From Escherichia virus TH55: a stretch of DNA of 64,000 nucleotides. Both the position numbers and the translations under genes were made by a program. The stretch lies in the sequence record MT446421.1, one strand, 5' to 3'. Of this stretch, positions 1,213 through 55,496 are shown piece by piece; position 1 is the first letter of the stretch; each line of letters opens with the position of its first letter. Under the pieces are notes generated by a model, which did not search any database, was not told the DNA's origin, and saw only the letters and a program-made list of their open reading frames with translations.

Positions 1213-3026
1213 TGGTGTTTAACCCTATGCATGATTTCTTTATTTTTGCCGAGATTAAATCCACGTTCGTTCGGATTTCCCAAATAACCGCAAGTTCTTC
1301 TTATTGTGTTCATCTTTTTAGGGTCAGTTTCTCCACAAATAGAACAAACAAATCCGTTTTCAGTAGGAGTCATTTCATGGGTACTTCCACACGTAAAACA
1401 TTTATCTACTGGCATATTAACACCAAAATAATCTAAATGTTGCGCGGCATAATCCCATACAGCCTCAAGACCTTTTAAGTTATTTTTCATATCAGGAAGT
1501 TCAACATAAGAAATGTGACCACCTGTCGCAATGAAATGATATGGGGCTTCGCGAGAAATCTTTTCAAACGGAGTAATATTTTCTTCTACTGAAACGTGGA
1601 AACTGTTAGTGTACCATCCTTTATCGGTAACATCTTTTACACTTCCATATTTTTCAGTATCAAGTTTACAGAAGCGATAACAAAGGTTTTCAGCAGGTGT
1701 AGAATACAAACTAAAAGCAAAACCGGTTCTTTCAGTCCACTGCTTAAGACGAGCATTCATTTTAGTTAAAATTTCTTGCCCAATATCACGACCGGCAAGA
1801 ATATTCAATTCGTGAATACCAATGTATCCCAAAGACACTGAACTTCTACCGTTTTTAAATAACTCAATTATATCATCATCAGGTTTAAGACGAACCCCGA
1901 ATGCACCTTCTTGGTAAAGAATAGGAGCAACAGTCGCTTTAACTCCTTTTAAAGAACTAATTCTACACATCAAAGCTTCAAAACACAAATCCATTCGCTC
2001 ATTGAACAATTCGATAAATTTCTGTTCATTGAACTGTGTTCCAATATAAGAATCTAACGCAATGCGAGGAAGATTCAGTGTTACAACACCAAGATTATTA
2101 CGTCCATCAAGAATTTCATTACCAGTCGAATCTTTCCATACGCCCAAGAAACTACGGCAACCCATTGGAGAAACAGGAATAGATGAACCAGTGATAGCTT
2201 TATTGTTCTTAGCTGAAATAATATCAGGATACATTCTTTTGCTTGCACACTCTAGAGCAAGCTGCTTAATATCATAGTTCGGGTCGTCTTTATAAAGATT
2301 AACACCTTCTTCAACGAACATAACAAGTTTAGGGAAAATAGGAGTTATCCCATCGCGACCAAGACCTTTGATACGATTTTTCAGAATTGCTTTCTGAATC
2401 ATTCGTTCAGTCCAGTCAGTTCCCGTGCCAAACGTAATTGTCACAAAAGGCGTTTGCCCATTTGAACTAAAGAGCGTATTTACTTCATATTCATAAGCTT
2501 GGAATGCATCGTATACGTCTTTTTCTGTTTTAGATTGGGCATAATTCAATGCATCAGTGATTTGCCATTTTTCTGCATCTTCAATATGTTTTGCGTATGT
2601 ACGTTTAACATAAGGAGAAAATACTTTGTCTACATTAGCAAAAGTCGTTCCGCCATATTGGTGAGAAGCAACCTGTGCAGTAATTTGTGCCATAATTGCA
2701 GTAGCAACACCGATTGATTTAGGAGTTTCAATCTGTGCATTACCAAGCTTAAATCCGTTCTCAAGCATTCCTTTTAAATCTACTAAACAGCAATTAGTAA
2801 ATGGAAGAGCAGGGGAATAATCAATATCATGGAAATGAATAATTCCACTTTCATGTGCTTTCATAATAAAAGACGCGACCATATTTTTGGCAATGTGTTT
2901 AGATACAATACCAGCCATAAGGTCCCGTTGAGTTGGAAAAACACGAGAATCTTTATTAGCATTCTCGTTTAAAAGGTCTTTATTAGTTTTATGAATCAAT
3001 CCTTCAATTTCGTTTTCAATTGTCAT
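1209..3026 (-). CDS. nrdD: anaerobic ribonucleoside-triphosphate reductase large subunit
   Basis: 605 aa; C-terminal glycyl-radical motif RTCGYLG and zinc ribbon CFTCG...CSICG; length equals T4 NrdD; ORF uninterrupted. Confidence 0.93.
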   Translation of the reverse strand: MTIENEIEGLIHKTNKDLLNENANKDSRVFPTQRDLMAGIVSKHIAKNMVASFIMKAHESGIIHFHDIDYSPALPFTNCCLVDLKGMLENGFKLGNAQIETPKSIGVATAIMAQITAQVASHQYGGTTFANVDKVFSPYVKRTYAKHIEDAEKWQITDALNYAQSKTEKDVYDAFQAYEYEVNTLFSSNGQTPFVTITFGTGTDWTERMIQKAILKNRIKGLGRDGITPIFPKLVMFVEEGVNLYKDDPNYDIKQLALECASKRMYPDIISAKNNKAITGSSIPVSPMGCRSFLGVWKDSTGNEILDGRNNLGVVTLNLPRIALDSYIGTQFNEQKFIELFNERMDLCFEALMCRISSLKGVKATVAPILYQEGAFGVRLKPDDDIIELFKNGRSSVSLGYIGIHELNILAGRDIGQEILTKMNARLKQWTERTGFAFSLYSTPAENLCYRFCKLDTEKYGSVKDVTDKGWYTNSFHVSVEENITPFEKISREAPYHFIATGGHISYVELPDMKNNLKGLEAVWDYAAQHLDYFGVNMPVDKCFTCGSTHEMTPTENGFVCSICGETDPKKMNTIRRTCGYLGNPNERGFNLGKNKEIMHRVKHQ

Positions 3027-3496
3027 TTTAAACTCTTTCTAAGCTGCTTCTTAAATGAAGCCATTAATTGTGTTTTGGTGTCAGATTCATTATAAGTCAT
3101 ACCATTCAAAAGCATTTCCCGAATCATTTCTTCTTTCCCCAGACGACCGAACTCTTTGGCTTTGTCTGTTACAAAATTGGGGTGAATATTGTTTTCGGTA
3201 TAATCAGATTTCAGATAGACAAGCAAACTCTCTAACCATTCCAGGTAGTCAACATCGCGACTTTTCAGACCCGAACGGCTGAACTTATGCTTCATTTGTC
3301 CTTCTGTCCCATTGCACAGATTGCATAGTAACCCGCGAACCTTACCAGCTTTTGGCCCGTTCAATTCGTGGTCATGGTCAAGATGGTTGGCCTGAACATC
3401 GGAGTCCAAATCACGGTGGCAAATTGGACACTTACCAGCTTGTGCATCATAAAGTTTTTGTTTTTCTTCTTTGTATAATTTGCCAGTCAACAACAT
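3023..3496 (-). CDS. 49: endonuclease VII (Holliday junction resolvase)
   Basis: 157 aa; near-identical to remembered T4 gp49 (MLLTGKLYKEEKQKLYDAQ...CNLCN...); zinc-binding CxxC/H-N-H core; adjacent to nrdD as in T4. Confidence 0.93.
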   Translation of the reverse strand: MLLTGKLYKEEKQKLYDAQAGKCPICHRDLDSDVQANHLDHDHELNGPKAGKVRGLLCNLCNGTEGQMKHKFSRSGLKSRDVDYLEWLESLLVYLKSDYTENNIHPNFVTDKAKEFGRLGKEEMIREMLLNGMTYNESDTKTQLMASFKKQLRKSLK

Positions 3497-5096: not shown

Positions 5097-5260
5097 TTAA
5101 AGTTCCAGAATGAAGCACCAACCAGAAATAAAGGCCAACAAATCATAGACGTCAGCCACCAGCAAAAGTCACCTGCACCGAAATCATCTAATTTAGCTAG
5201 GGTCTTAGCATAACCAATACCGATGATAAGATACAAAACACCCAACGATAATTCAATCAT
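5093..5260 (-). CDS. hypothetical small membrane protein (55 aa, below ORF-track cutoff)
   Basis: Hand-translated: MIELSLGVLYLIIGIGYAK...; hydrophobic; start overlaps nrdC stop. Confidence 0.35.
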   Translation of the reverse strand: MIELSLGVLYLIIGIGYAKTLAKLDDFGAGDFCWWLTSMICWPLFLVGASFWNFK

Positions 5261-5520
5261 TTAAAATATTCTCGCAGTTGGTCAAAGCCGCCAATATGAC
5301 TTCCGTCAGGAGCAAATACTTGCGGCATGGTCAAACCAATTTGAGATTCGCGACCAAGTGCAGCCAGGAGTTGGGCAATCTTCTCATCATCAAACACACC
5401 TTTTTCTGGCATAACGTTGATGAACTCGTAAGGTTGTTTTTTAACATCCAAAAAACGTTTTGCATTATCGCAGAATACACAGCGATGAATAGATGAATCA
5501 TAACCATATACTTTAAACAT
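5257..5520 (-). CDS. nrdC: glutaredoxin/thioredoxin
   Basis: 87 aa; active site CVFCDNAK; near-identical to remembered T4 NrdC (MFKVYGYDS...GGFDQLREYFK). Confidence 0.9.
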   Translation of the reverse strand: MFKVYGYDSSIHRCVFCDNAKRFLDVKKQPYEFINVMPEKGVFDDEKIAQLLAALGRESQIGLTMPQVFAPDGSHIGGFDQLREYFK

Positions 5521-5521
5521 A

Positions 5522-5779
5522 TTATTCCTTAATTCCTAATACTTGTTTGAAGGTCTCAGTATAATCGGGGTATTGACCGGTTTGTTCTTTATGTTTGACC
5601 ATAATACCATAAACTTCTGAACGCATATTATTATATGAACGAGTTAAAGCAGATTTCAATACTGAATAACTATCCGGAAGTTTACCGTGTTCTTTATAAT
5701 AGGCCAGAGTTAATTCACGGACCGCCTTATCAGCAGTCTCAAGATATTCTTTACGCTTTGCCATTTTCGTCTCGCTCAA
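5522..5779 (-). CDS. hypothetical protein (85 aa or shorter)
   Basis: Minus-strand ORF immediately upstream of nrdC; start ambiguous (M1 or M6). Confidence 0.45.
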
Positions 5780-31036: not shown

Positions 31037-31113
31037 TGGTCGGGGTGGTGGGATTCTAACCCACAACCTACGGTTTAGAAGACCGTTGCTCTATACAATT
31101 GAGCTACACCCCG
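31037..31113 (-). tRNA. tRNA-Arg (anticodon UCU)
   Basis: Hand-folded cloverleaf: 7-bp acceptor CGGGGTG/CACCCCG, D-stem GCTC/GAGC, anticodon stem ACGGT/ACCGT with loop CUUCUAA, T-stem GTGGG/CCCAC, encoded CCA; T-loop is UUAGAAU (A at conserved C56 position). Confidence 0.75.
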
Positions 31114-31189
31114 GGTGGCCCCATCCGGACTTGAACCGGAAACCTGCCAGTTATGAGCCGGATGCTCTAACCAATTGAGCTACAGGGCC
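31114..31189 (-). tRNA. tRNA with CAU anticodon (Met, or Ile if lysidine-modified)
   Basis: Hand-folded: acceptor GGCCCTG/TGGGGCC (two G-U pairs), D-stem GCTC/GAGC, anticodon loop CUCAUAA, T-arm TCCGG-TTCAAGT-CCGGA; abuts tRNA-Arg with no spacer. Confidence 0.75.
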
Positions 31190-33534: not shown

Positions 33535-33867
33535 TTATTTATAAAGTTTTGCCAGTTCTTTACGTCCGCGTGCAGACATAATAAATTGTTCATCGCCAAT
33601 TTTAAAATAAGCCATACCGCCGTCAACAGCGATACCAATTTCTTTAGTACCTTCTTTGCCTTTCCACTTGCCACCAGATTTCAGGACAGCTTCAACTGCA
33701 GCTTTGGAATATTTGGACGTTTGAAAACGTTCATTACCAATCTGAAAGAAAACACCATCTGCATTTTTGGTTAAACCAAATTTCAGAGAGCCTTCACTAT
33801 CATCAATTGATTTGGTCTCATTGATGGCGGATTCGGCTAAAAACTCGTTGTAAGTTTTGATGTTCAT
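33535..33867 (-). CDS. internal-protein-like capsid-targeted protein (110 aa; position of T4 ipI)
   Basis: N-terminus MNIKTYNEFLAES (CTS-like); early promoter 33903-33931; adjacent to 57B as ipI in T4. Confidence 0.6.
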   Translation of the reverse strand: MNIKTYNEFLAESAINETKSIDDSEGSLKFGLTKNADGVFFQIGNERFQTSKYSKAAVEAVLKSGGKWKGKEGTKEIGIAVDGGMAYFKIGDEQFIMSARGRKELAKLYK

Positions 33868-34623: not shown

Positions 34624-35300
34624 TATATTACCTTATTAATTTTATCAAAAAGTTCTTCGAGTGTGCCATTGTTTTTAATAACAATGTCACTAGCTAGTGG
34701 TGGAAGTCCAGCTTCCGTAATGTGTGTATCGGTAGAATGATTTGCTTCATCGCGTTCTACAAAGATTATTGTAGCACCCATCGCCCGAAGCGAATCAAGT
34801 TCGTTCTTTTGACGAACATCTGGGACAACGTAATATTTATATCCAGAATAGAGGTTGTCAAGATAATCGCACGCAAAAGTTTTAATCCAAAACATGCTGT
34901 CGAACTCTGTACAAACGATGTCAGTTCCAAGGGTCTGCATGAAACGTCTAACTGTCCAGGGCTCAACATTATTTAGTGTGTGAAATTCAATGATTTTACG
35001 AACCATATCTGGATTCGGAAGGTCAAGATTGTATTGTTGTTTCAACCATTCAAGAGCATCAACCAGAAGAATATAAGCTTCGGTGTTGTTCATTATCAAG
35101 GTTTTTTCACGGTCATAACCTTGTCCATCAAAATTTTCCAGGGTCAAATTGTGTGGCAGGTCTTGACGAATCCACGCTTTATAAAGCGCTTCTTTAATCG
35201 GACCTGCAAGCTGCCACTTTGTTCCGTTTTGACTAATAACATAATCAGCAGTCGTATCTTTACCACTGCGTTTTTTACCCACAATCGCAATTAATTTCAT
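34623..35300 (-). CDS. 1: deoxynucleoside monophosphate kinase
   Basis: 225 aa; P-loop GKKRSGKDTTADY...QLAGPIKEAL and C-terminal DTHITEAGLP match remembered T4 gp1. Confidence 0.9.
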
Positions 35301-35896
35301 ACGTTTCTCATAGATGGATGCATTGACTTAGACCTGATTTCCTGTTGCATTGCTGCATTACTATCAATCTGTGGTCTACCTTCTATTATTATACCATCAA
35401 TTTCTACAGCAAAAGACTTAAAGTTAAAAGTTGCTGTTGCATTGATAGCCGGGTCAGAATCTTCTTTATATGAATACTGAATCTCTGACAGGTCGGACGG
35501 CCATGCTCCATAGTAATGGATTGACATGACAATTTTGTCCTTGTTGTTATCTAAGATATGAAGCGTGACCGCTTCGGGACGACCCTTCGGATGCCATGCT
35601 TTTGATTCGTGTGTGATGTAGTTGTTGAGCGAGAGCATCCATTTATAAATGTCAAGCCATGCTCTTAGGTCTTTGTCACACAGAAAGTTAACAATCAGTG
35701 GGTCGAATTCTATTGTACTACCAGGAAGACTGGAGCGATTTATACCTTGTGTTCCCCCAGGAACATCTGTCACAGGGATGTGAACACCAGGGAGGGTAAC
35801 GTCTTGAACGTTGAGTTTAAAGGTCTGTGTGAGGTTTGAATCGCTTACCTCTAATATAAAGTTAGTCGTGTTAGTTTGATTATATAAACCTGACAT
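35297..35896 (-). CDS. 3: tail completion / sheath stabiliser protein (gp3-like)
   Basis: 199 aa ORF in position of T4 gene 3; ATGA overlap with gene 1; assigned by synteny. Confidence 0.65.
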   Translation of the reverse strand: MSGLYNQTNTTNFILEVSDSNLTQTFKLNVQDVTLPGVHIPVTDVPGGTQGINRSSLPGSTIEFDPLIVNFLCDKDLRAWLDIYKWMLSLNNYITHESKAWHPKGRPEAVTLHILDNNKDKIVMSIHYYGAWPSDLSEIQYSYKEDSDPAINATATFNFKSFAVEIDGIIIEGRPQIDSNAAMQQEIRSKSMHPSMRNV

Positions 35897-35981
35897 AATG
35901 CACCTTGTTTGCTTTAAAACAATCAGTGTTATAATGGTTCTAGACCTTTTGTCCTTACCAATAACACTGACCGATAATAGA

Positions 35982-36656
35982 TTATTTTATTAATGTGTTA
36001 AGTCTTAGCTTAGTCATAAACGGATAACGTTCCAACATTGGCTTTACCCAGTATCGAGGATGCAATTCCTTTTTATATGCTAAGACCAACTCTCGAGCTT
36101 GCTCGACGGTATCAACTCCGAAGTTTTTACACATTTCTTGCCTATCTTTTTCCCACCGGCGCTTTCTCAATTCATCCTGAATCTCTTTATTTTTAAAATG
36201 ACCATTATTGCGAGAATGTTTTGTACCCTTGGTTGGACTGTAATGTCTTCCTTTGACAAACCCATCCGGAATATTTTCCCATGGAAATAGTTTTATCGAT
36301 TTGACACCATTATTAAAGTAAACTTTACCGGTTTGACTTTTAGAAATATTGTCAGCGTGTCTACGTCTTAACCAACCAAATAATTTATTATTGCGTTTCA
36401 AATACTTGCTTGACTGGCACATGGATGTAGCAGCAAAACTTAAACCTGGATTTGTAGGATATATTTTAACCAATAGTTGATGGGCTACATAATGTTCCTC
36501 AGGAGTCAAATCGACCAGATTATCTGGGTCATTTGAACCACCCATACATTTCGGAATGATGTGATGAGATTCTTTATATGAAATCAGGACCCTGTTACGG
36601 GCCCTTTCAATTAACGATGAATATATAAACTGATAATTCAAAGTGAATTTCTCCAT
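35982..36656 (-). CDS. free-standing HNH homing endonuclease
   Basis: 224 aa; HNH core [29 protein letters not shown]; inserted between genes 3 and 2. Confidence 0.75.
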
Positions 36657-37465
36657 ACTTTCTGGGAAGAATATCTTTTGCCTTTTGAAAAAAACTGCTG
36701 AAGGGGGAGTAATACCACATTTGCCCAGTCGCTGGGCTTGATTTCAGTGATAGTACCTTTTATATTGCCGGGTATATATGCTTTAATCATCTGGTCAGCC
36801 CCTTTAAATCCCTTCACCTTTGACCAATCAATCTTCAGATGAGTCTTGTTTGTAATCGTAGGAGTATTAGCATATTGCTTAAGAAGTTCCTCAAGGAACT
36901 CTTGACGTGCCTTCGGTGGAATATAGTGCAAGTTCAAACCGTACATCAAATTATGCTTACCTAGACCAAGATAAATGATTAACGGATATTTGTCCCAGTA
37001 TGGAAGAGTATCCTTATGCTTTGCATCATAGATATAAGCATAAAGTTTACCTGGTTGAGGTTTAGCCGTTACGTGGCCGCGAACTGATTTCTTAATTGTC
37101 TCTGCGAACCATCTGGCAGATTTGGTGTTGCTTGCAGCGCCTTCGTTAGCAATCTTATCTCTTATGCTCTTCCTAAAGCTATTCACCATTATCAGCTGGC
37201 GTTCAGCCTTCGTAAGTTTACCAGCAGGTTTCTTTTTGAGCTTGGATACTTTATAAGCAGTCTGAATTCTTGAATGATACCTCGACATGCTTTTGGTAAA
37301 GGTCGAATAGTTGATTCCTTTCTCTTCAGCAAACTTCTTCGAGGTCATTCCTTTTTCTTTTGCTGTATAAAATTCAACCCCTATCTCAACCCATTGTTGT
37401 TCTGATTTACTGGGTTTCGGACCTGGTTTATCTGCAGATTCATTGATAAATGTAAAAATACTCAT
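36638..37465 (-). CDS. 2: DNA end protector protein gp2
   Basis: About 275 aa from MSIFTF; position between 3 and 4; ATGA coupling with gene 4; assigned by synteny and length. Confidence 0.7.
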
Positions 37466-37911
37466 CCTTTCCATCCTAATTTTTTCAGGCCGTTTTCGGT
37501 TAGAATGCGAAATGTAATACCCATTTTATCTGCGGTAGCTTGTGCAGCTTTCCACTTATCCCTGTTCACAGAATAAGTGTACATTTCGTTTATATAACGT
37601 TTCTTACTGGCTGCTGTATTATTTACAGGAATTTTTGGGGGCTGTGTTTCTTTGAATGGTTTTATTTCAATAAAAAATTGCTGGCCGGTATCAAATTTAC
37701 ACCATATATCCATATAGTAACGGCGCTTTTTGCCATCAGCATTGCTAAAATATGGAATAACAACAGTCTCAGAACCCCATTGAACAACATTGGGGTGAGT
37801 GTCGAGCCACTTGAACATATATGCCTCCCAACTCGACCTGTACTGTATTTTCTTCCAATCACCTTTATATTTTTCTAGATTTGTTGGTTTAAACTTCCCG
37901 GAGTACGCCAT
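37462..37911 (-). CDS. 4: head completion protein gp4
   Basis: About 149 aa from MAYSGKFKP (T4 gp4-like N-terminus and length). Confidence 0.75.
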
Positions 37912-38596
37912 TTTTAAGTACCTTACAATTTTCACCATGCCAACGTTTATAGTTGCCTGGATTTGTTATTTTTCCACAGTGTTCACAGGTGTGACGGGGA
38001 GCATTTTTATTAAGCTCTGATAAACGTTTTCTGACATCATCAGTAATACCTTGCTTTATTTTCTCGCTATGATTTACCAAAACTCTTTCTTTATTTGCCT
38101 TGGATATTTTTGCTCGCCAATCATCTGTAAACACTCTTTCTGATAATTTCTTACAATGTTCTTCAGAGAACTTTTTACCCTTTGCTGCTTCTGACAACTT
38201 TTTGCAATGCTCTTCAGAGCGCGGGCCATATTTCTTACCTTTAAGAGCTTTTGAAATATTTTCACATGTTTGTTTTGAACGTTTACGTCCAGTGTGAAAC
38301 TTAATGGAAGTCTCAACAGCGCGGATGCGCACCCATTCAAATTGTTTGTTATTGTAATTGTTGGAACCCATTAGAATTTTCGCAGCATGTGCTAACGAGT
38401 GATTATCTGGATAAATTTTAACCAATAACAGGTGGGCGACAAAATGTTCAGGAGCGGTAAGCTCGACTAAATTTTCATCAGTATCTAATCCGCCCATACA
38501 TCTTGGAATAATGTGATGTTTCTCTTTGTAACCATCAATGGGTGCTCGATTTTTAGCTCGTTGGATTAAGTTATTGTAATGTTTTAGATAGTTCAT
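37889..38596 (-). CDS. free-standing HNH homing endonuclease with NUMOD3-like repeats
   Basis: 235 aa; HNH core HHIIPRCMGGLDTDENLVELTAPEHFVAH; two repeats SEEHCKKLSEAAKGKK; C-terminal CxxC; minus-strand TATAAATA at 38615-38622; inserted between 4 and 53. Confidence 0.75.
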   Translation of the reverse strand: MNYLKHYNNLIQRAKNRAPIDGYKEKHHIIPRCMGGLDTDENLVELTAPEHFVAHLLLVKIYPDNHSLAHAAKILMGSNNYNNKQFEWVRIRAVETSIKFHTGRKRSKQTCENISKALKGKKYGPRSEEHCKKLSEAAKGKKFSEEHCKKLSERVFTDDWRAKISKANKERVLVNHSEKIKQGITDDVRKRLSELNKNAPRHTCEHCGKITNPGNYKRWHGENCKVLKNGVLREV

Positions 38597-38614
38597 TTAT
38601 ATTTTCCTCATATG

Positions 38615-38622
38615 TATTTATA
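38615..38622 (-). promoter_or_regulatory. late promoter TATAAATA (HNH endonuclease gene)
   Basis: Minus-strand TATAAATA 19 nt upstream of HNH ORF start; overlaps the divergent plus-strand late promoter of gene 53. Confidence 0.5.
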
Positions 38623-38626
38623 AATA
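38619..38626 (+). promoter_or_regulatory. late promoter TATAAATA (gene 53)
   Basis: Exact late consensus 41 nt upstream of gene 53 ATG. Confidence 0.65.
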
Positions 38627-38666
38627 GAGTATATCATACTTAAACCATATTGTAAATGGAGGCTTT

Positions 38667-39269
38667 ATGCTTTTTTCATTTTTTAACCCAATTGATTATG
38701 ATGCTAAAACAATCAGAAAAAACTCGGCATCATTAACGAAAGAAGATGTCTTAAGCATCCCAATGACTGACATCTTCAGAAACTATCGTGCATATTTTGA
38801 TAAGGTCGCGGTTAATTATACACCGAAAACATATTACATCGCCGGAGCTCCGAGACCTGAAGAACTTGCATATCAGCTCTATGGTAATACTCAACTCTAT
38901 TGGGTTCTCCTTATGCTTAATAATATCTATGACCCGTATTATGGTTGGATATGTTCACAAGAATCATCATATCAGGCATCAATTCAACGCTATTCGAATA
39001 TAGGTGGTAATCAGGTTCTTTATCATGTAAATGAAGATGGTGAAAAATTCTGGAATCTTGTTTCTTATCCTGATAATCCATACACATGGTATGATAAAGG
39101 TGATAAGAACAAATTATACCCACAGTATGAAGGCCCATTAGCTGCAGTGGATATCTACGAAGATGCTATTCGCAAAAATGAATATAAACGAGAAATAAAG
39201 ATAATCGACCCTAATGATATCGAATCATTTATTTCGGCATTAATCCGCGAGATGGAGAAGGCGCTATGA
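38667..39269 (+). CDS. 53: baseplate wedge protein gp53
   Basis: 200 aa; first gene of plus-strand late cluster, late promoter 38619-38626; ATGA overlap with gene 5. Confidence 0.75.
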   Translation: MLFSFFNPIDYDAKTIRKNSASLTKEDVLSIPMTDIFRNYRAYFDKVAVNYTPKTYYIAGAPRPEELAYQLYGNTQLYWVLLMLNNIYDPYYGWICSQESSYQASIQRYSNIGGNQVLYHVNEDGEKFWNLVSYPDNPYTWYDKGDKNKLYPQYEGPLAAVDIYEDAIRKNEYKREIKIIDPNDIESFISALIREMEKAL

Positions 39270-41008
39270 TTAATATGTCAGATAGTGTAAGTTGGTTCGT
39301 CGGTGTTGTCGAAGACCGAATGGACCCACTTCAACAAGGTCGTGTTCGTGTTCGTGTATGGGGTATGCATCCATATGAGAAATCGCAAGGGCCTGTAAAA
39401 GGTATCAGAACTGAAGACCTGCCCTGGATGTCTGTATTGATGCCAACATCATCTGCATCGGTTTCCGGTATTCAAACTGCCATGACTGGTATGGTCCCGG
39501 GTACTCAAGTATATGGTCACTTTTTGGACAAGTGGAAGCTCAATGGATTAGTCCTTGGTACATATGGCTCAGCATCAAGACAGAAGGCAAACACAACAGA
39601 AGGTTTTAGTGACCCCACAGGGCAATATCCGCTTTATGTGGGCAATGATGCTGCTGCGCTTAACCGAGGCGGTGAGGTCGGTTATGATGACACTTCAAAC
39701 GTAATACAAGATGCAAACACTGATGTAGGTATTAATCCAGACGGGTTAGATTTAAGCCAAGTTAAGCCTGATGATAATCCTAATTTCACAATAGAAAACA
39801 TGCTTCACCGCGATGAAGGTCTTCGTCTGAAAGTATATTGGGACACTGAAGGTTATCCTACTATAGGTATAGGACACTTAATTACACCACAACCTATTAG
39901 AGATATGAATCAGATAAACAAAATATTATCCAATCAAATAGGCCGTGAAGTTAAAGGTAACCCTGGTGCAATATCAATGGACGAGGCTTCTAAGTTATTC
40001 CAAGAAGACCTTAAAAAAGTCCAAAATGATATAGGTAGACATAGTGTTGTAGGTCCGGTTTACAATAAAGAAAACCGTTCAAGACAAATGGCTCTTGAAA
40101 ACATGGCTTTCCAAATGGGATTAGGTGGACTTGCTAAATTTAAAACGATGCTCGCTGCAATGTTAGCCGGAGATTATAAGAAAGCATTTGATGCCGCTCG
40201 TGATTCTGTATGGTTTAACCAAACTAAAGGCCGTGCATCAAGGGTATCAATGATTATCCTCACAGGTAACATGGAATCATATGGTATTATGGCCCCTAAA
40301 GAAAGGTCATTTAAAGGGCGTTCATACAGGATGATTCAAACCTTTGTGGCCCCTACAAATTCCGACCCGGCCGACCCGTGGACTCCAGAAGATACGAGGA
40401 TTCTATTTAAAGAGCCAGAATCAAGTTACAAAGGTGAATATCCTTACGTGCAGACAATGCAAACTGAAGGCGGTCATATTCAGGAATTTGATAACACTCC
40501 AGGACAAGAACGTTATCGACTGATTCATCCGACCGGTTCCTATGAGGAAGTTGCACCAGATGGTCGTAAGACTTCGAAGACGGTAGCCGATGGCTATTAT
40601 ATGACCCAGGGCGATTCAAGCACTTATGTTGGTGGGAATAATAAAGTCAACGTTGGTGGTGATGAAACCTATTACAATATGGCTAACGTTCGTCGTCAGA
40701 CCGATGGAAACGAAACCATCCATATTCGTGGTAACGAAGAGAAAACTGTAGAAGGTAATGGAACACTCAGAGTTAAAGGCAACGTTACTGTTATTGTTGA
40801 AGGAAATGCTGATGTTACTGTTAAGGGTGATGCGACTACCTTAGTAGAAGGTAATGAAACTCGCACGACTAATGGTAATTTAAACTGGACTGTAAATGGT
40901 ACCGTATCTTGGACTTGTGCAGGTGCTTGGTCCGAGACTATGGCTTCAATGAGTTCTATTGCATCTGGTCAATATACTATTGATGGTTCGAGGATTGACA
41001 TTGGCTAA
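39266..41008 (+). CDS. 5: baseplate hub + tail lysozyme (cell-puncturing device) gp5
   Basis: 580 aa; central lysozyme domain DEGLRLKVYWDTEGYPTIGIGHLIT; C-terminal VxGN beta-helix repeats. Confidence 0.92.
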   Translation: MINMSDSVSWFVGVVEDRMDPLQQGRVRVRVWGMHPYEKSQGPVKGIRTEDLPWMSVLMPTSSASVSGIQTAMTGMVPGTQVYGHFLDKWKLNGLVLGTYGSASRQKANTTEGFSDPTGQYPLYVGNDAAALNRGGEVGYDDTSNVIQDANTDVGINPDGLDLSQVKPDDNPNFTIENMLHRDEGLRLKVYWDTEGYPTIGIGHLITPQPIRDMNQINKILSNQIGREVKGNPGAISMDEASKLFQEDLKKVQNDIGRHSVVGPVYNKENRSRQMALENMAFQMGLGGLAKFKTMLAAMLAGDYKKAFDAARDSVWFNQTKGRASRVSMIILTGNMESYGIMAPKERSFKGRSYRMIQTFVAPTNSDPADPWTPEDTRILFKEPESSYKGEYPYVQTMQTEGGHIQEFDNTPGQERYRLIHPTGSYEEVAPDGRKTSKTVADGYYMTQGDSSTYVGGNNKVNVGGDETYYNMANVRRQTDGNETIHIRGNEEKTVEGNGTLRVKGNVTVIVEGNADVTVKGDATTLVEGNETRTTNGNLNWTVNGTVSWTCAGAWSETMASMSSIASGQYTIDGSRIDIG

Positions 41009-54557: not shown

Positions 54558-55496
54558 ATGGCAACTGAATCATACAACCCGAAACAATTAAAAGATGCAA
54601 TCCTTCGACGTCTTGGTGCTCCAATTACGAATATCGAAGTTACGACCGAACAGGTCTATGATTGCATCCAGCGTGCATTAGAATTATATGGCGAATATCA
54701 TTATAATGGTTATAACAAAGGTTATCAGGCTTTTTATATCGGTCATGATGACGTTTCACAACAGAAATTTCGCGATGGTGTTTTCGATTTAAAAGGCCGT
54801 AATATTTTTGCAGTAACGCAGATTATTCGTACTAACGTCGGTTCATTAACTTCGATGGATGGTCAAGCTACATATCCATGGTTCACAGATTTTGTTCTGG
54901 GACTGGCCGGGATTAACGGTGGAATGGGTAGCTCATGTAACAGCTTTGGTCCAAATGCTTTTGGTGCAGACCTTGGTTATTTTACACAGCTTATGCAATA
55001 TCGTTCAATGATGCAAGACCTGATGGTTCCGCTTCCGGATTACTGGTATAATGACGATACTGAACAACTTAAAATTATGGGCAACTTCCGTCAGGGAGAT
55101 GTGATTGTAATTGAAGTTTATACCAAATCGTATAACGGCGTGGATTCAATGGTAGGTAATACAGCTGGATATGGTTTTGCTTCGGCCGATTGTGATAATC
55201 CGTGGAATGCTGGCGCACAGTGGGATAACCCGGCACGCAGAATAAGCGGCATGAGAGCAGGTGAGGACCTTGGACTTCAAGATGGCGCATACAACAACCG
55301 TTGGGTGAAAGACTATGCCACGGCGCTCGTTAAGGAAGTTAACGGCAACGTATTGGCTAAACACCAGGGGATGATGATGCCAGGTGGTACCACGGTTGAT
55401 GGTGTTCGTTTAATTGAAGAAGCTCGTATGGAAAAAGAACGTCTTCGTGAGGAACTTGACCTGCTGGATGCACCGACTCCTATATTGGTGGGCTAA
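54558..55496 (+). CDS. 13: neck protein gp13
   Basis: 312 aa; late promoter 54532-54539; synteny wac-13-14. Confidence 0.85.

Follow-up and report, generated by a model that had tools for sequence, protein, structure and literature searches.

A Mob-like homing endonuclease gene at the gene 4/53 junction of a Gaprivervirus, with its linked gene 4 allele and a palindromic late-promoter motif

What is a homing endonuclease gene doing between two conserved, divergently oriented late genes of a T4-like phage, how might it have come to lie there, and from which promoter might it be read? These questions are raised by a stretch of 64,000 nucleotides from Escherichia virus TH55 (sequence record MT446421.1), all of which is here called the window. 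In it, an open reading frame (ORF) of 235 amino acids, beginning with ATG, occupies positions 37889..38596 on the minus strand. It stands between gene 4 (head completion), which has the same orientation, and gene 53 (baseplate wedge), which has the opposite one. By its sequence, the window comes from a T4-like coliphage of the genus Gaprivervirus; Escherichia phages UPEC07 and TH22 match it with 100% identity between positions 37300 and 39400. A preliminary description, made from the letters of the DNA alone, had placed an HNH protein of 235 amino acids between genes 4 and 53, and both the ORF and the neighbors identified with Pfam agree with that placement. The description had missed that gene 4 begins within this ORF, the final 23 nucleotides of which (37889-37911) are shared by the two.

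As an endonuclease gene, it is already known in GenBank. The same ORF in UPEC07 is labeled "homing endonuclease" (QUL77590.1), and the gene is one more of the Mob-type HNH homing endonucleases. Judged from the sequence, it is a real gene, probably active, and of an ordinary and well-known T4 type, and it matters little in itself. The locus would offer a clean natural example of a free-standing endonuclease gene that hijacks an essential late promoter, and that therefore cannot be deleted together with that promoter. It would also exemplify the travel of a whole allele of an essential gene, gene 4, with an endonuclease gene. We consider it probable, with good confidence, that a homing endonuclease gene (HEG) of the Mob family was copied into a Gaprivervirus genome, along with a foreign allele of gene 4 and a promoter region that has been rebuilt.

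The junction and the cassette

Within Gaprivervirus, the endonuclease gene is distributed sporadically. It is carried by three of about 27 distinct members of the genus (UPEC07, TH22, and phage 212). Eighteen have an empty site, and the other six have a GIY-YIG endonuclease gene between genes 2 and 4. The preliminary description had proposed a comparison of the junction with T4 as a check. When this comparison is made, T4 and the empty-site relatives are found to be without the endonuclease gene, and to have between genes 4 and 53 a spacer that carries two separate, crossing octamers of the late-promoter type.

Phage ECML-359, in which the site is empty and the gene 4/53 spacer is 48 bp long, allows the junctions to be placed. 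In a BLAST comparison, the similarity between the window and ECML-359 ends at the ATG of gene 4 (37911) and restarts at 38650. Thus, 738 bp (37912-38649) replace 31 bp.

The imported DNA does not stop at the endonuclease gene. When identity to ECML-359 is profiled over 50 nucleotides, genes 2 and 53 are found to be 98-100% identical (the gp53 proteins are 100% identical in amino acids), whereas the whole of gene 4 is only 68-84% identical, with a synonymous divergence (dS) of 1.83. The BLAST junctions and this profile together bound a cassette of approximately 1.17 kb (37475..38649) that holds the gene 4 allele, the endonuclease gene, and the promoter region. In a set of 50,697 phage records, only the three endonuclease-bearing phages have this allele of gene 4 (at least 98.7% identity), and the next best match has 79% identity. 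The Gapriverviruses that bear the GIY-YIG gene have a third gene 4 allele, approximately 70% identical.

Gene 4 itself (37462..37911, minus strand) is recognized by the Pfam family Tn7_TnsA-like_N (E 1.7e-20), and comparison with T4 and its relatives places its true start at ATG 37911 (MAYSGKF...). It may be observed in passing that gp4 has a TnsA-like endonuclease N-terminal domain; the gene that travels with the endonuclease is itself nuclease-like. Gene 53 (38667..39269, plus strand; Pfam Phage_gp53, E 1.6e-73) is the first gene of the rightward late operon.

Phage 212 provides a second view of the cassette. Its gene 4 is 98.7% identical to that of the window, its endonuclease gene is 94.9% identical in nucleotides and 98.7% in amino acids, and its spacer is 98.6% identical. 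Its genes 53 and 5 are just 88-89% identical. Because phage 212 shares the cassette so closely with the window, but not genes 53 and 5, the same cassette is present in two backgrounds. In the phage 212 record, gene 53 (1871-2470 of the locus sequence) has no label but the pseudogene-like one of a misc_feature, "similar to baseplate wedge subunit"; it aligns to gene 53 of the window without gaps, at 88% identity in nucleotides and 95.5% in amino acids.

The two copies of the endonuclease gene also indicate how selection has treated the protein. Between the window and phage 212 there are 35 nucleotide differences, 31 of them synonymous and four non-synonymous, giving a ratio of non-synonymous to synonymous divergence (dN/dS) of 0.029. 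This, in turn, means that strong purifying selection acts on the protein, which is not decaying.

Is the gene, then, inserted or ancestral? The preliminary description had held that an alignment of the junction could decide this. The empty 48-bp spacer in relatives, flanks that remain 98-100% identical, and a dS near 1.8 in gene 4 support insertion within Gaprivervirus, to the extent that sequence comparison can speak to history.

In all of this, the gene resembles the mob genes of T4. These are likewise free-standing ORFs squeezed between conserved genes, sporadic in occurrence, and co-inherited with polymorphisms in their flanks. They are also without a private promoter, and use the promoter of the host gene (PMC2988022). 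The locus, of course, is different; MobE of T4 is found between nrdA and nrdB, and the gene in the window between genes 4 and 53. The expression context differs as well, being late here and early or middle for the mob genes of T4.

The palindrome and the two late operons

Between the endonuclease gene and gene 53 lies TATTTATAAATA (38615..38626), an exact and perfect palindrome of 12 bp in which two T4 late-promoter octamers overlap by 4 bp. The preliminary description had pointed out that these letters read identically on both strands. They do so exactly, and TATAAATA is present on each strand. The palindrome occurs once in the window, where 0.02 occurrences are expected. It is conserved in phage 212, and is also found upstream of the endonuclease homologue in phage KP182.

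The late promoter of T4 consists of the octamer TATAAATA at positions -13 to -6, with no need for a -35 element, and the first T of the octamer is often an A in relatives of T4 (PMC1524935). Transcription starts were placed here by this -13..-6 rule (PMC1524935). The leftward octamer (38615..38622, minus strand) has its predicted start at G38609 and is the only consensus available to the leftward genes. The rightward octamer (38619..38626, plus strand) has its predicted start near 38632, followed by a leader of 35 nucleotides in which GGAGG precedes the ATG of gene 53.

The window holds 14 perfect copies of TATAAATA, where 5.7 are expected, all of them oriented as the local genes are, and the point at which the octamers switch strand coincides exactly with the palindrome. 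On the minus strand from 34842 to 38614, there is no other [A/T]ATAAATA, making the palindrome the sole consensus for the endonuclease gene, genes 4 and 2, a first HNH gene that lies between genes 2 and 3, and gene 3. Nor does a second [A/T]ATAAATA precede 41108 on the plus strand, and the palindrome is hence the sole consensus for genes 53 and 5.

Could one element of 12 bp serve both directions, as the preliminary description had suggested? From its sequence context, TATTTATAAATA could plausibly act as a late promoter in both directions. It is unique in the window, it is the only consensus for each operon, and it has a precedent in T4. There, the identical palindrome occurs once (AF158101 116450-116461), between the late genes 26 and 51, which point away from each other. 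Because T4 has the same palindrome at 26/51, a bidirectional late promoter of 12 bp is a known layout in T4-like genomes and no oddity. The spacing from palindrome to start is 21 and 17 nucleotides at 26/51 of T4, and 18 and 40 in the window. The T4 element differs in that it serves two baseplate genes, whereas here a mobile endonuclease gene precedes the leftward structural gene. A search of the literature found no paper on the palindrome.

To whom does the leftward half belong? The ancestral octamer of gene 4, which in relatives lies beside gene 53, has been lost in the window, where TTATAAAT has become TTGTAAAT at 38650-38657; the palindrome is located within the imported DNA. The leftward octamer is best read, on the arrangement of motifs, as serving late transcription of the essential 4-2(-3) operon, and not as a promoter private to the endonuclease gene. 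No embedded late promoter for gene 4 was found inside the endonuclease ORF, where the only near match, TATAAATG, overlaps the endonuclease ATG, and no terminator-like site was found in 37300-38800. Because neither a late promoter nor a terminator lies inside the ORF, gene 4 must share the message of the endonuclease. The only Shine-Dalgarno-like element of gene 4, a weak AAGG (37921-37924), is itself inside the endonuclease ORF.

The putative ribosome binding site (RBS) of the endonuclease gene, GAGG (38606..38609, minus strand), is 9 nucleotides before the ATG at 38596, and thus at the extreme 5' end of the predicted late mRNA. The leftward 5' region appears unstructured, with a minimum free energy of -4.4 kcal/mol (z 0.64) and both the RBS and the AUG unpaired. 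No hairpin sequestering the RBS, of the kind known for I-TevI and for mobE of Aeh1, was found in the leader. A structural gene at 54558 in the window has the same geometry, with 18 nucleotides from octamer to ATG. Elsewhere, a perfect TATAAATA at 33536-33543 on the minus strand stands 9 nucleotides before an ATG (TATAAATAaggtttcttATG), too near to leave room for a normal leader, should the -13..-6 rule apply.

These elements suggest how the HEG might live at this locus. It lies exactly between the leftward late promoter of the 4-2(-3) operon and the start codon of gene 4. Its transcription would be confined to the late period and be the work of the gp55-RNA polymerase, which would start at G38609 from the palindrome's leftward half. 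An endonuclease-4-2 message would then open with the endonuclease cistron, whose stop overlaps the start of gene 4. The rightward half, in turn, would drive genes 53, 5, and onward. This would fit the habits of T4 mob and seg cassettes, which often harness upstream phage promoters and displace the promoter of the host gene (PMC2988022).

Mobility may be pictured in the same way, by analogy with MobE, SegF, and SegG of T4. In a mixed infection, the enzyme would nick or cut endonuclease-free genomes in or near gene 4, and recombinational repair would then copy the endonuclease gene, together with a resistant gene 4 allele, into the recipient. In the case of MobE, the enzyme nicks the neighboring nrdB of endonuclease-free T2, and flanking sequence is co-converted (PMC2790892).

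The protein and its family

The preliminary description had called the protein an HNH endonuclease. Matches to the Mob family, NUMOD3 repeats, and a zinc knuckle all agree. The protein falls in PHROG 655 ("homing endonuclease", E 6.6e-61). In a BLASTP search against the proteins of T4, the first match is MobE, with 70% identity over residues 1-63 (E 6e-30), and the next matches are to MobB, MobD, and MobC (E 4e-24 to 1e-16); over the HNH domain, identity to MobB and MobD is 49-52%. With MobE, MobB, MobC, and MobD it shares the N-terminal HNH signature MNYxKxY...ExHHIIPRCMGG...NLV.LT..EH..AH.

The HNH nuclease domain covers approximately residues 1-62 (38411..38596, minus strand), as delineated by invariant columns, a family profile, and an AlphaFold model. 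Across 43 aligned homologues, Y23, E25, H27, H28, P31, G36, N42, H51, and H55 are invariant. When the profile of these 43 was compared to solved structures, it matched the HNH domains of McrA (E 2.3e-4), of a group II intron maturase, and of Cas8-HNH fusions. The family profile is needed for this; a search of the PDB with the single sequence returned McrA alone, at E 0.41. Of the 43, 33 match Pfam HNH; most homologues do so only at E 0.01 or better.

The AlphaFold model has a pLDDT of 90.9 overall and 97-98 in the HNH part. Its HNH core consists of strands at 25-28 and 43-46 followed by a helix at 48-61, which is a beta-beta-alpha arrangement; beyond it, the model has short helices. Fold searches with the whole chain of the model were uninformative.

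The middle of the protein, approximately residues 104-171 (38084..38287, minus strand), is made of helical repeats of the NUMOD3 type, seen in Pfam, in matches of the homologues, and in tblastn. The protein of the window narrowly passes Pfam NUMOD3 (PF07460), with 21.3 bits against a cut-off of 20.4; 36 of the 43 homologues match it, the best with E 1.6e-14. By tblastn, this part resembles the NUMOD3 regions of I-TevII and SegA of T4. The preliminary description had reported a longer repeat, present twice. Its 10-residue part, SEEHCKKLSE, is indeed duplicated, at residues 127-136 (38189-38218) and 144-153 (38138-38167), with 23 of 30 nucleotides identical, while the AAKGKK that had been included in the repeat follows the first copy only.

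The C-terminus holds a CCHC zinc knuckle (C204, C207, H220, and C224; 37925..37987, minus strand). The preliminary description had seen a CxxC here; C204-E-H-C207 is that motif, and it is followed by H220 and C224. These four residues are kept in at least 90% of the 43 homologues. The C-terminal 34 amino acids are 47% identical to the C-terminus of I-TevIII of T4 (E 7e-7), and by tblastn the tail also matches the nrdB.1 ORF that adjoins mobE in T4.

How ordinary, then, is this enzyme? Its C-terminal half, with four NUMOD3-like units and the CCHC knuckle, cannot be aligned to the annotated MobE. I-TevIII, from the nrdB intron of RB3 and T4, is likewise an HNH enzyme whose C-terminus forms a zinc finger, and the window protein shares 47% identity, over its residues 194-226, with the C-terminus of the I-TevIII remnant of T4. 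The likeness is limited to the zinc-finger tail, and I-TevIII is encoded in an intron, whereas the ORF here is free-standing, bounded by gene 4 and by the gene 53 spacer. A scan of the window with Rfam found no intron-like RNA family and nothing in the endonuclease region. The same scan identified two adjacent tRNA genes at 31040-31189 on the minus strand (73.7 and 62.2 bits). For MobE, a strand-specific nick in nrdB of T2 has been demonstrated (PMC2790892); the window enzyme would be a nuclease by analogy.

Gene 4 as constant partner and candidate target

The family reaches well beyond Gaprivervirus. Homologues with 40-64% identity lie directly upstream of gene 4, usually overlapping it, in at least seven genera. 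The carriers include members of Tegunavirus (phiR1-RT, TG1), Tulanevirus (Aeromonas phage 25), Jiaodavirus (two variants), Karamvirus, and Gualtarvirus, and further phage ELT4, Pectobacterium phage PM2, and three metagenome contigs. Most of the homologues follow a T4-like spacer of 46-55 bp with two crossing octamers; in Aeromonas phage 25, the homologue comes after 5.1. Some of their leaders resemble the leader that gene 4 itself has in empty-site phages. Occupancy is again incomplete; in Jiaodavirus, approximately 100 of 141 records are without a homologue. The PM2 copy (5186-5724 of the locus sequence) is probably degenerate, since its alignment is broken into two parts that lie in different frames and lack residues 115-146.

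The constant neighbor of these homologues is gene 4, and not gene 53. Because gene 4 is the constant partner, a target for the enzyme in or beside gene 4 is suggested.

Several observations weigh against a Mob-family HEG that was brought in by homing and is read from the leftward octamer. Between genera, the endonucleases are 57-61% identical, while the core proteins gp4, gp53, and gp2 are 54-72% identical. Because its divergence between genera is like that of core genes, the endonuclease lineage must be old at this locus, and at that depth a long vertical residence with frequent loss is as compatible with the data as frequent homing. The protein of the window, taken alone, misses the threshold of Pfam HNH (PF01844), with 13.9 bits against 21.4 (E 0.063), so its membership in the HNH superfamily rests on the Mob and PHROG matches; a scan of the protein against NCBIfam matched no family. 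The predicted leader has only 13 nucleotides, and an mRNA that begins at the first base of its RBS may be translated poorly. Last, the substitutions that distinguish the linked gene 4 allele from endonuclease-free alleles are spread over the whole gene and form several equally dense clusters. When gene 4 was aligned from endonuclease-positive and endonuclease-negative phages in order to pinpoint the target site, no single cluster proved discriminating.

Might the protein be no longer selfish, or no longer only selfish? It might be kept for a benefit to the phage, such as the exclusion of co-infecting relatives, a part in late DNA processing, or regulation of the shared promoter, like the autorepression by I-TevI. 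A dN/dS as low as that of gene 53, the holding of a single locus in seven or more genera at a divergence like that of core genes, and a place between an essential promoter and essential genes, which favors retention (PMC2988022), would all be expected of such a protein. It is nonetheless dispensable, for of about 27 distinct Gapriverviruses 24 are without it, as are approximately 100 Jiaodaviruses. Further, a cassette found in two backgrounds is the classic signature of homing, and no target-sequence copy resembling an operator was found. We therefore regard a beneficial role as unlikely.

It is quite improbable that the gene was ancestral to the Gapriverviruses at 4/53 and was lost from most of them, with the diverged gene 4 merely an old allele. 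The occupation of the same site in many genera, at the divergence of core genes, is what such a history would leave. However, a gene 4 with its dS of 1.83, standing between genes 2 and 53 that are nearly identical to those of an empty-site phage, requires recombinational import and not deletion, and the empty sites keep an intact T4-like spacer of 48 bp with both promoters.

Very improbable, finally, is early transcription of the endonuclease gene from a sigma-70/T4-early-like TTTACA-17-TGaTATACT (38656-38628, minus strand) in place of the leftward TATAAATA, or an essentially silent gene, for although that sequence has a 10/12 match and an extended -10 TG just upstream of the palindrome in imported DNA, and T4 mob genes mostly use early or middle upstream promoters (PMC2988022), matches of equal quality occur in the window at chance frequency (three observed, 2.5 expected), which led us to reject this promoter, all downstream genes on the minus strand are late structural genes, and the late octamer is perfect, with T4-like spacing.

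The import of a Mob-family HEG with its gene 4 allele thus remains the preferred reading, and gene 4 deserves a closer look. Here, a side observation on related lineages may be of consequence. Several endonuclease-bearing lineages, the window not among them, have a conserved insertion of one nucleotide at codon 31 of gene 4 (TAC to TTT C). The carriers are Jiaodaviruses of the KP182 type and of the UTI-K1 type (including Mexia), phiR1-RT and TG1, PM2, and two metagenome contigs. In the respective locus sequences, the frameshift is found near 2270 (phiR1-RT), 2275 (KP182), 5800 (PM2), and 6090 (TG1). The endonuclease-free Mineola has in its gene 4 TGG GAA CAG TAC ATG ATG CGT TGG; the carriers have ...CAG TTT C ATG ATG..., ...CAG TTT C GTA ATG..., or ...GCC TTT TTT C ATG AAG....

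The frames on both sides of the insertion are conserved, and a restored gp4 has exactly the normal length. To judge from these sequences, a +1 slip on UUU_C would restore full-length gp4, or gp4 might be made as two pieces, the latter being possible because a GGAG-like element precedes an ATG here. When IMG/VR was scanned for the pattern without bias, the endonuclease gene lay upstream of both of two frameshifted gene 4 copies, and upstream of three of 102 in-frame copies; a separate metagenome scan for the frameshift pattern found nothing. PM2 retains its gene 4 frameshift despite an endonuclease gene that looks broken. No paper on the gene 4 frameshift was found in the literature.

In the window, gene 4 is in frame. 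At the homologous spot (37810-37822), eight of 13 nucleotides are changed, giving four consecutive amino acid changes relative to endonuclease-free alleles, and clusters as dense as this occur elsewhere in the window's gene 4. It may be proposed, tentatively, that this Mob-like lineage is specific for gene 4. Its target would be the conserved stretch that encodes W-E-x-(Y/W/F)-x-M-(K/R)-W-L-D (codons 28-37), and self-immunity would come from recoded gene 4 alleles, by substitutions here and by the codon-31 insertion elsewhere. The odds, we think, are somewhat against this proposal.

A parallel is available in T4. There, mobA is accompanied by the 50-nucleotide bypass of gene 60, and the cassette joins a Mob-family gene to a self-immune, altered form of the essential gene beside it. 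The insert is described as protecting from nicking by MobA (bioRxiv 10.1101/2022.08.31.505936, citing Bonocora et al. 2011). The window differs in that any immunity of its in-frame gene 4 would rest on substitutions. If the proposal is true, homing endonucleases would be known to drive the translational recoding of an essential phage gene in two natural cases, mobA with the gene 60 bypass being the first. The frameshift could matter more than the endonuclease; if confirmed, it would be a new case of recoding, or of a split gene, tied to mobile DNA.

The endonuclease gene of the 4/53 site is not alone in this part of the genome. The first HNH gene (35982-36656, minus strand), Mob-like and a member of PHROG 655 (E 8e-58), lies between genes 3 and 2. 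Its protein is 45% identical to that of the second over the HNH domain and is without the zinc knuckle. It is also sporadic, being present in eight of 38 matching records and missing from phage 212 and ECML-359. Its flanks are 96-98% identical, and no diverged neighbor travels along with it.

In Gaprivervirus as a whole, the segment of genes 3-2-4-53-5 (approximately 35900-39270 in the window, some 5 kb) contains four independently occupied insertion sites for endonuclease genes. These are an HNH gene at 3/2, a GIY-YIG gene with NUMOD3 at 2/4, the HNH gene at 4/53, and a SegE-like GIY-YIG gene with NUMOD3 at 53/5. In relatives, endonuclease genes were placed, in the coordinates of each locus sequence, at 663-1310 (L003), at 663-1310 and 2413-3048 (L004), and at 1763-2398 (L006). 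Four independent sites thus crowd one 5-kb segment devoted to morphogenesis. In the records examined, the endonuclease genes at 2/4 and 4/53 never occur together, and each goes with a gene 4 allele of its own.

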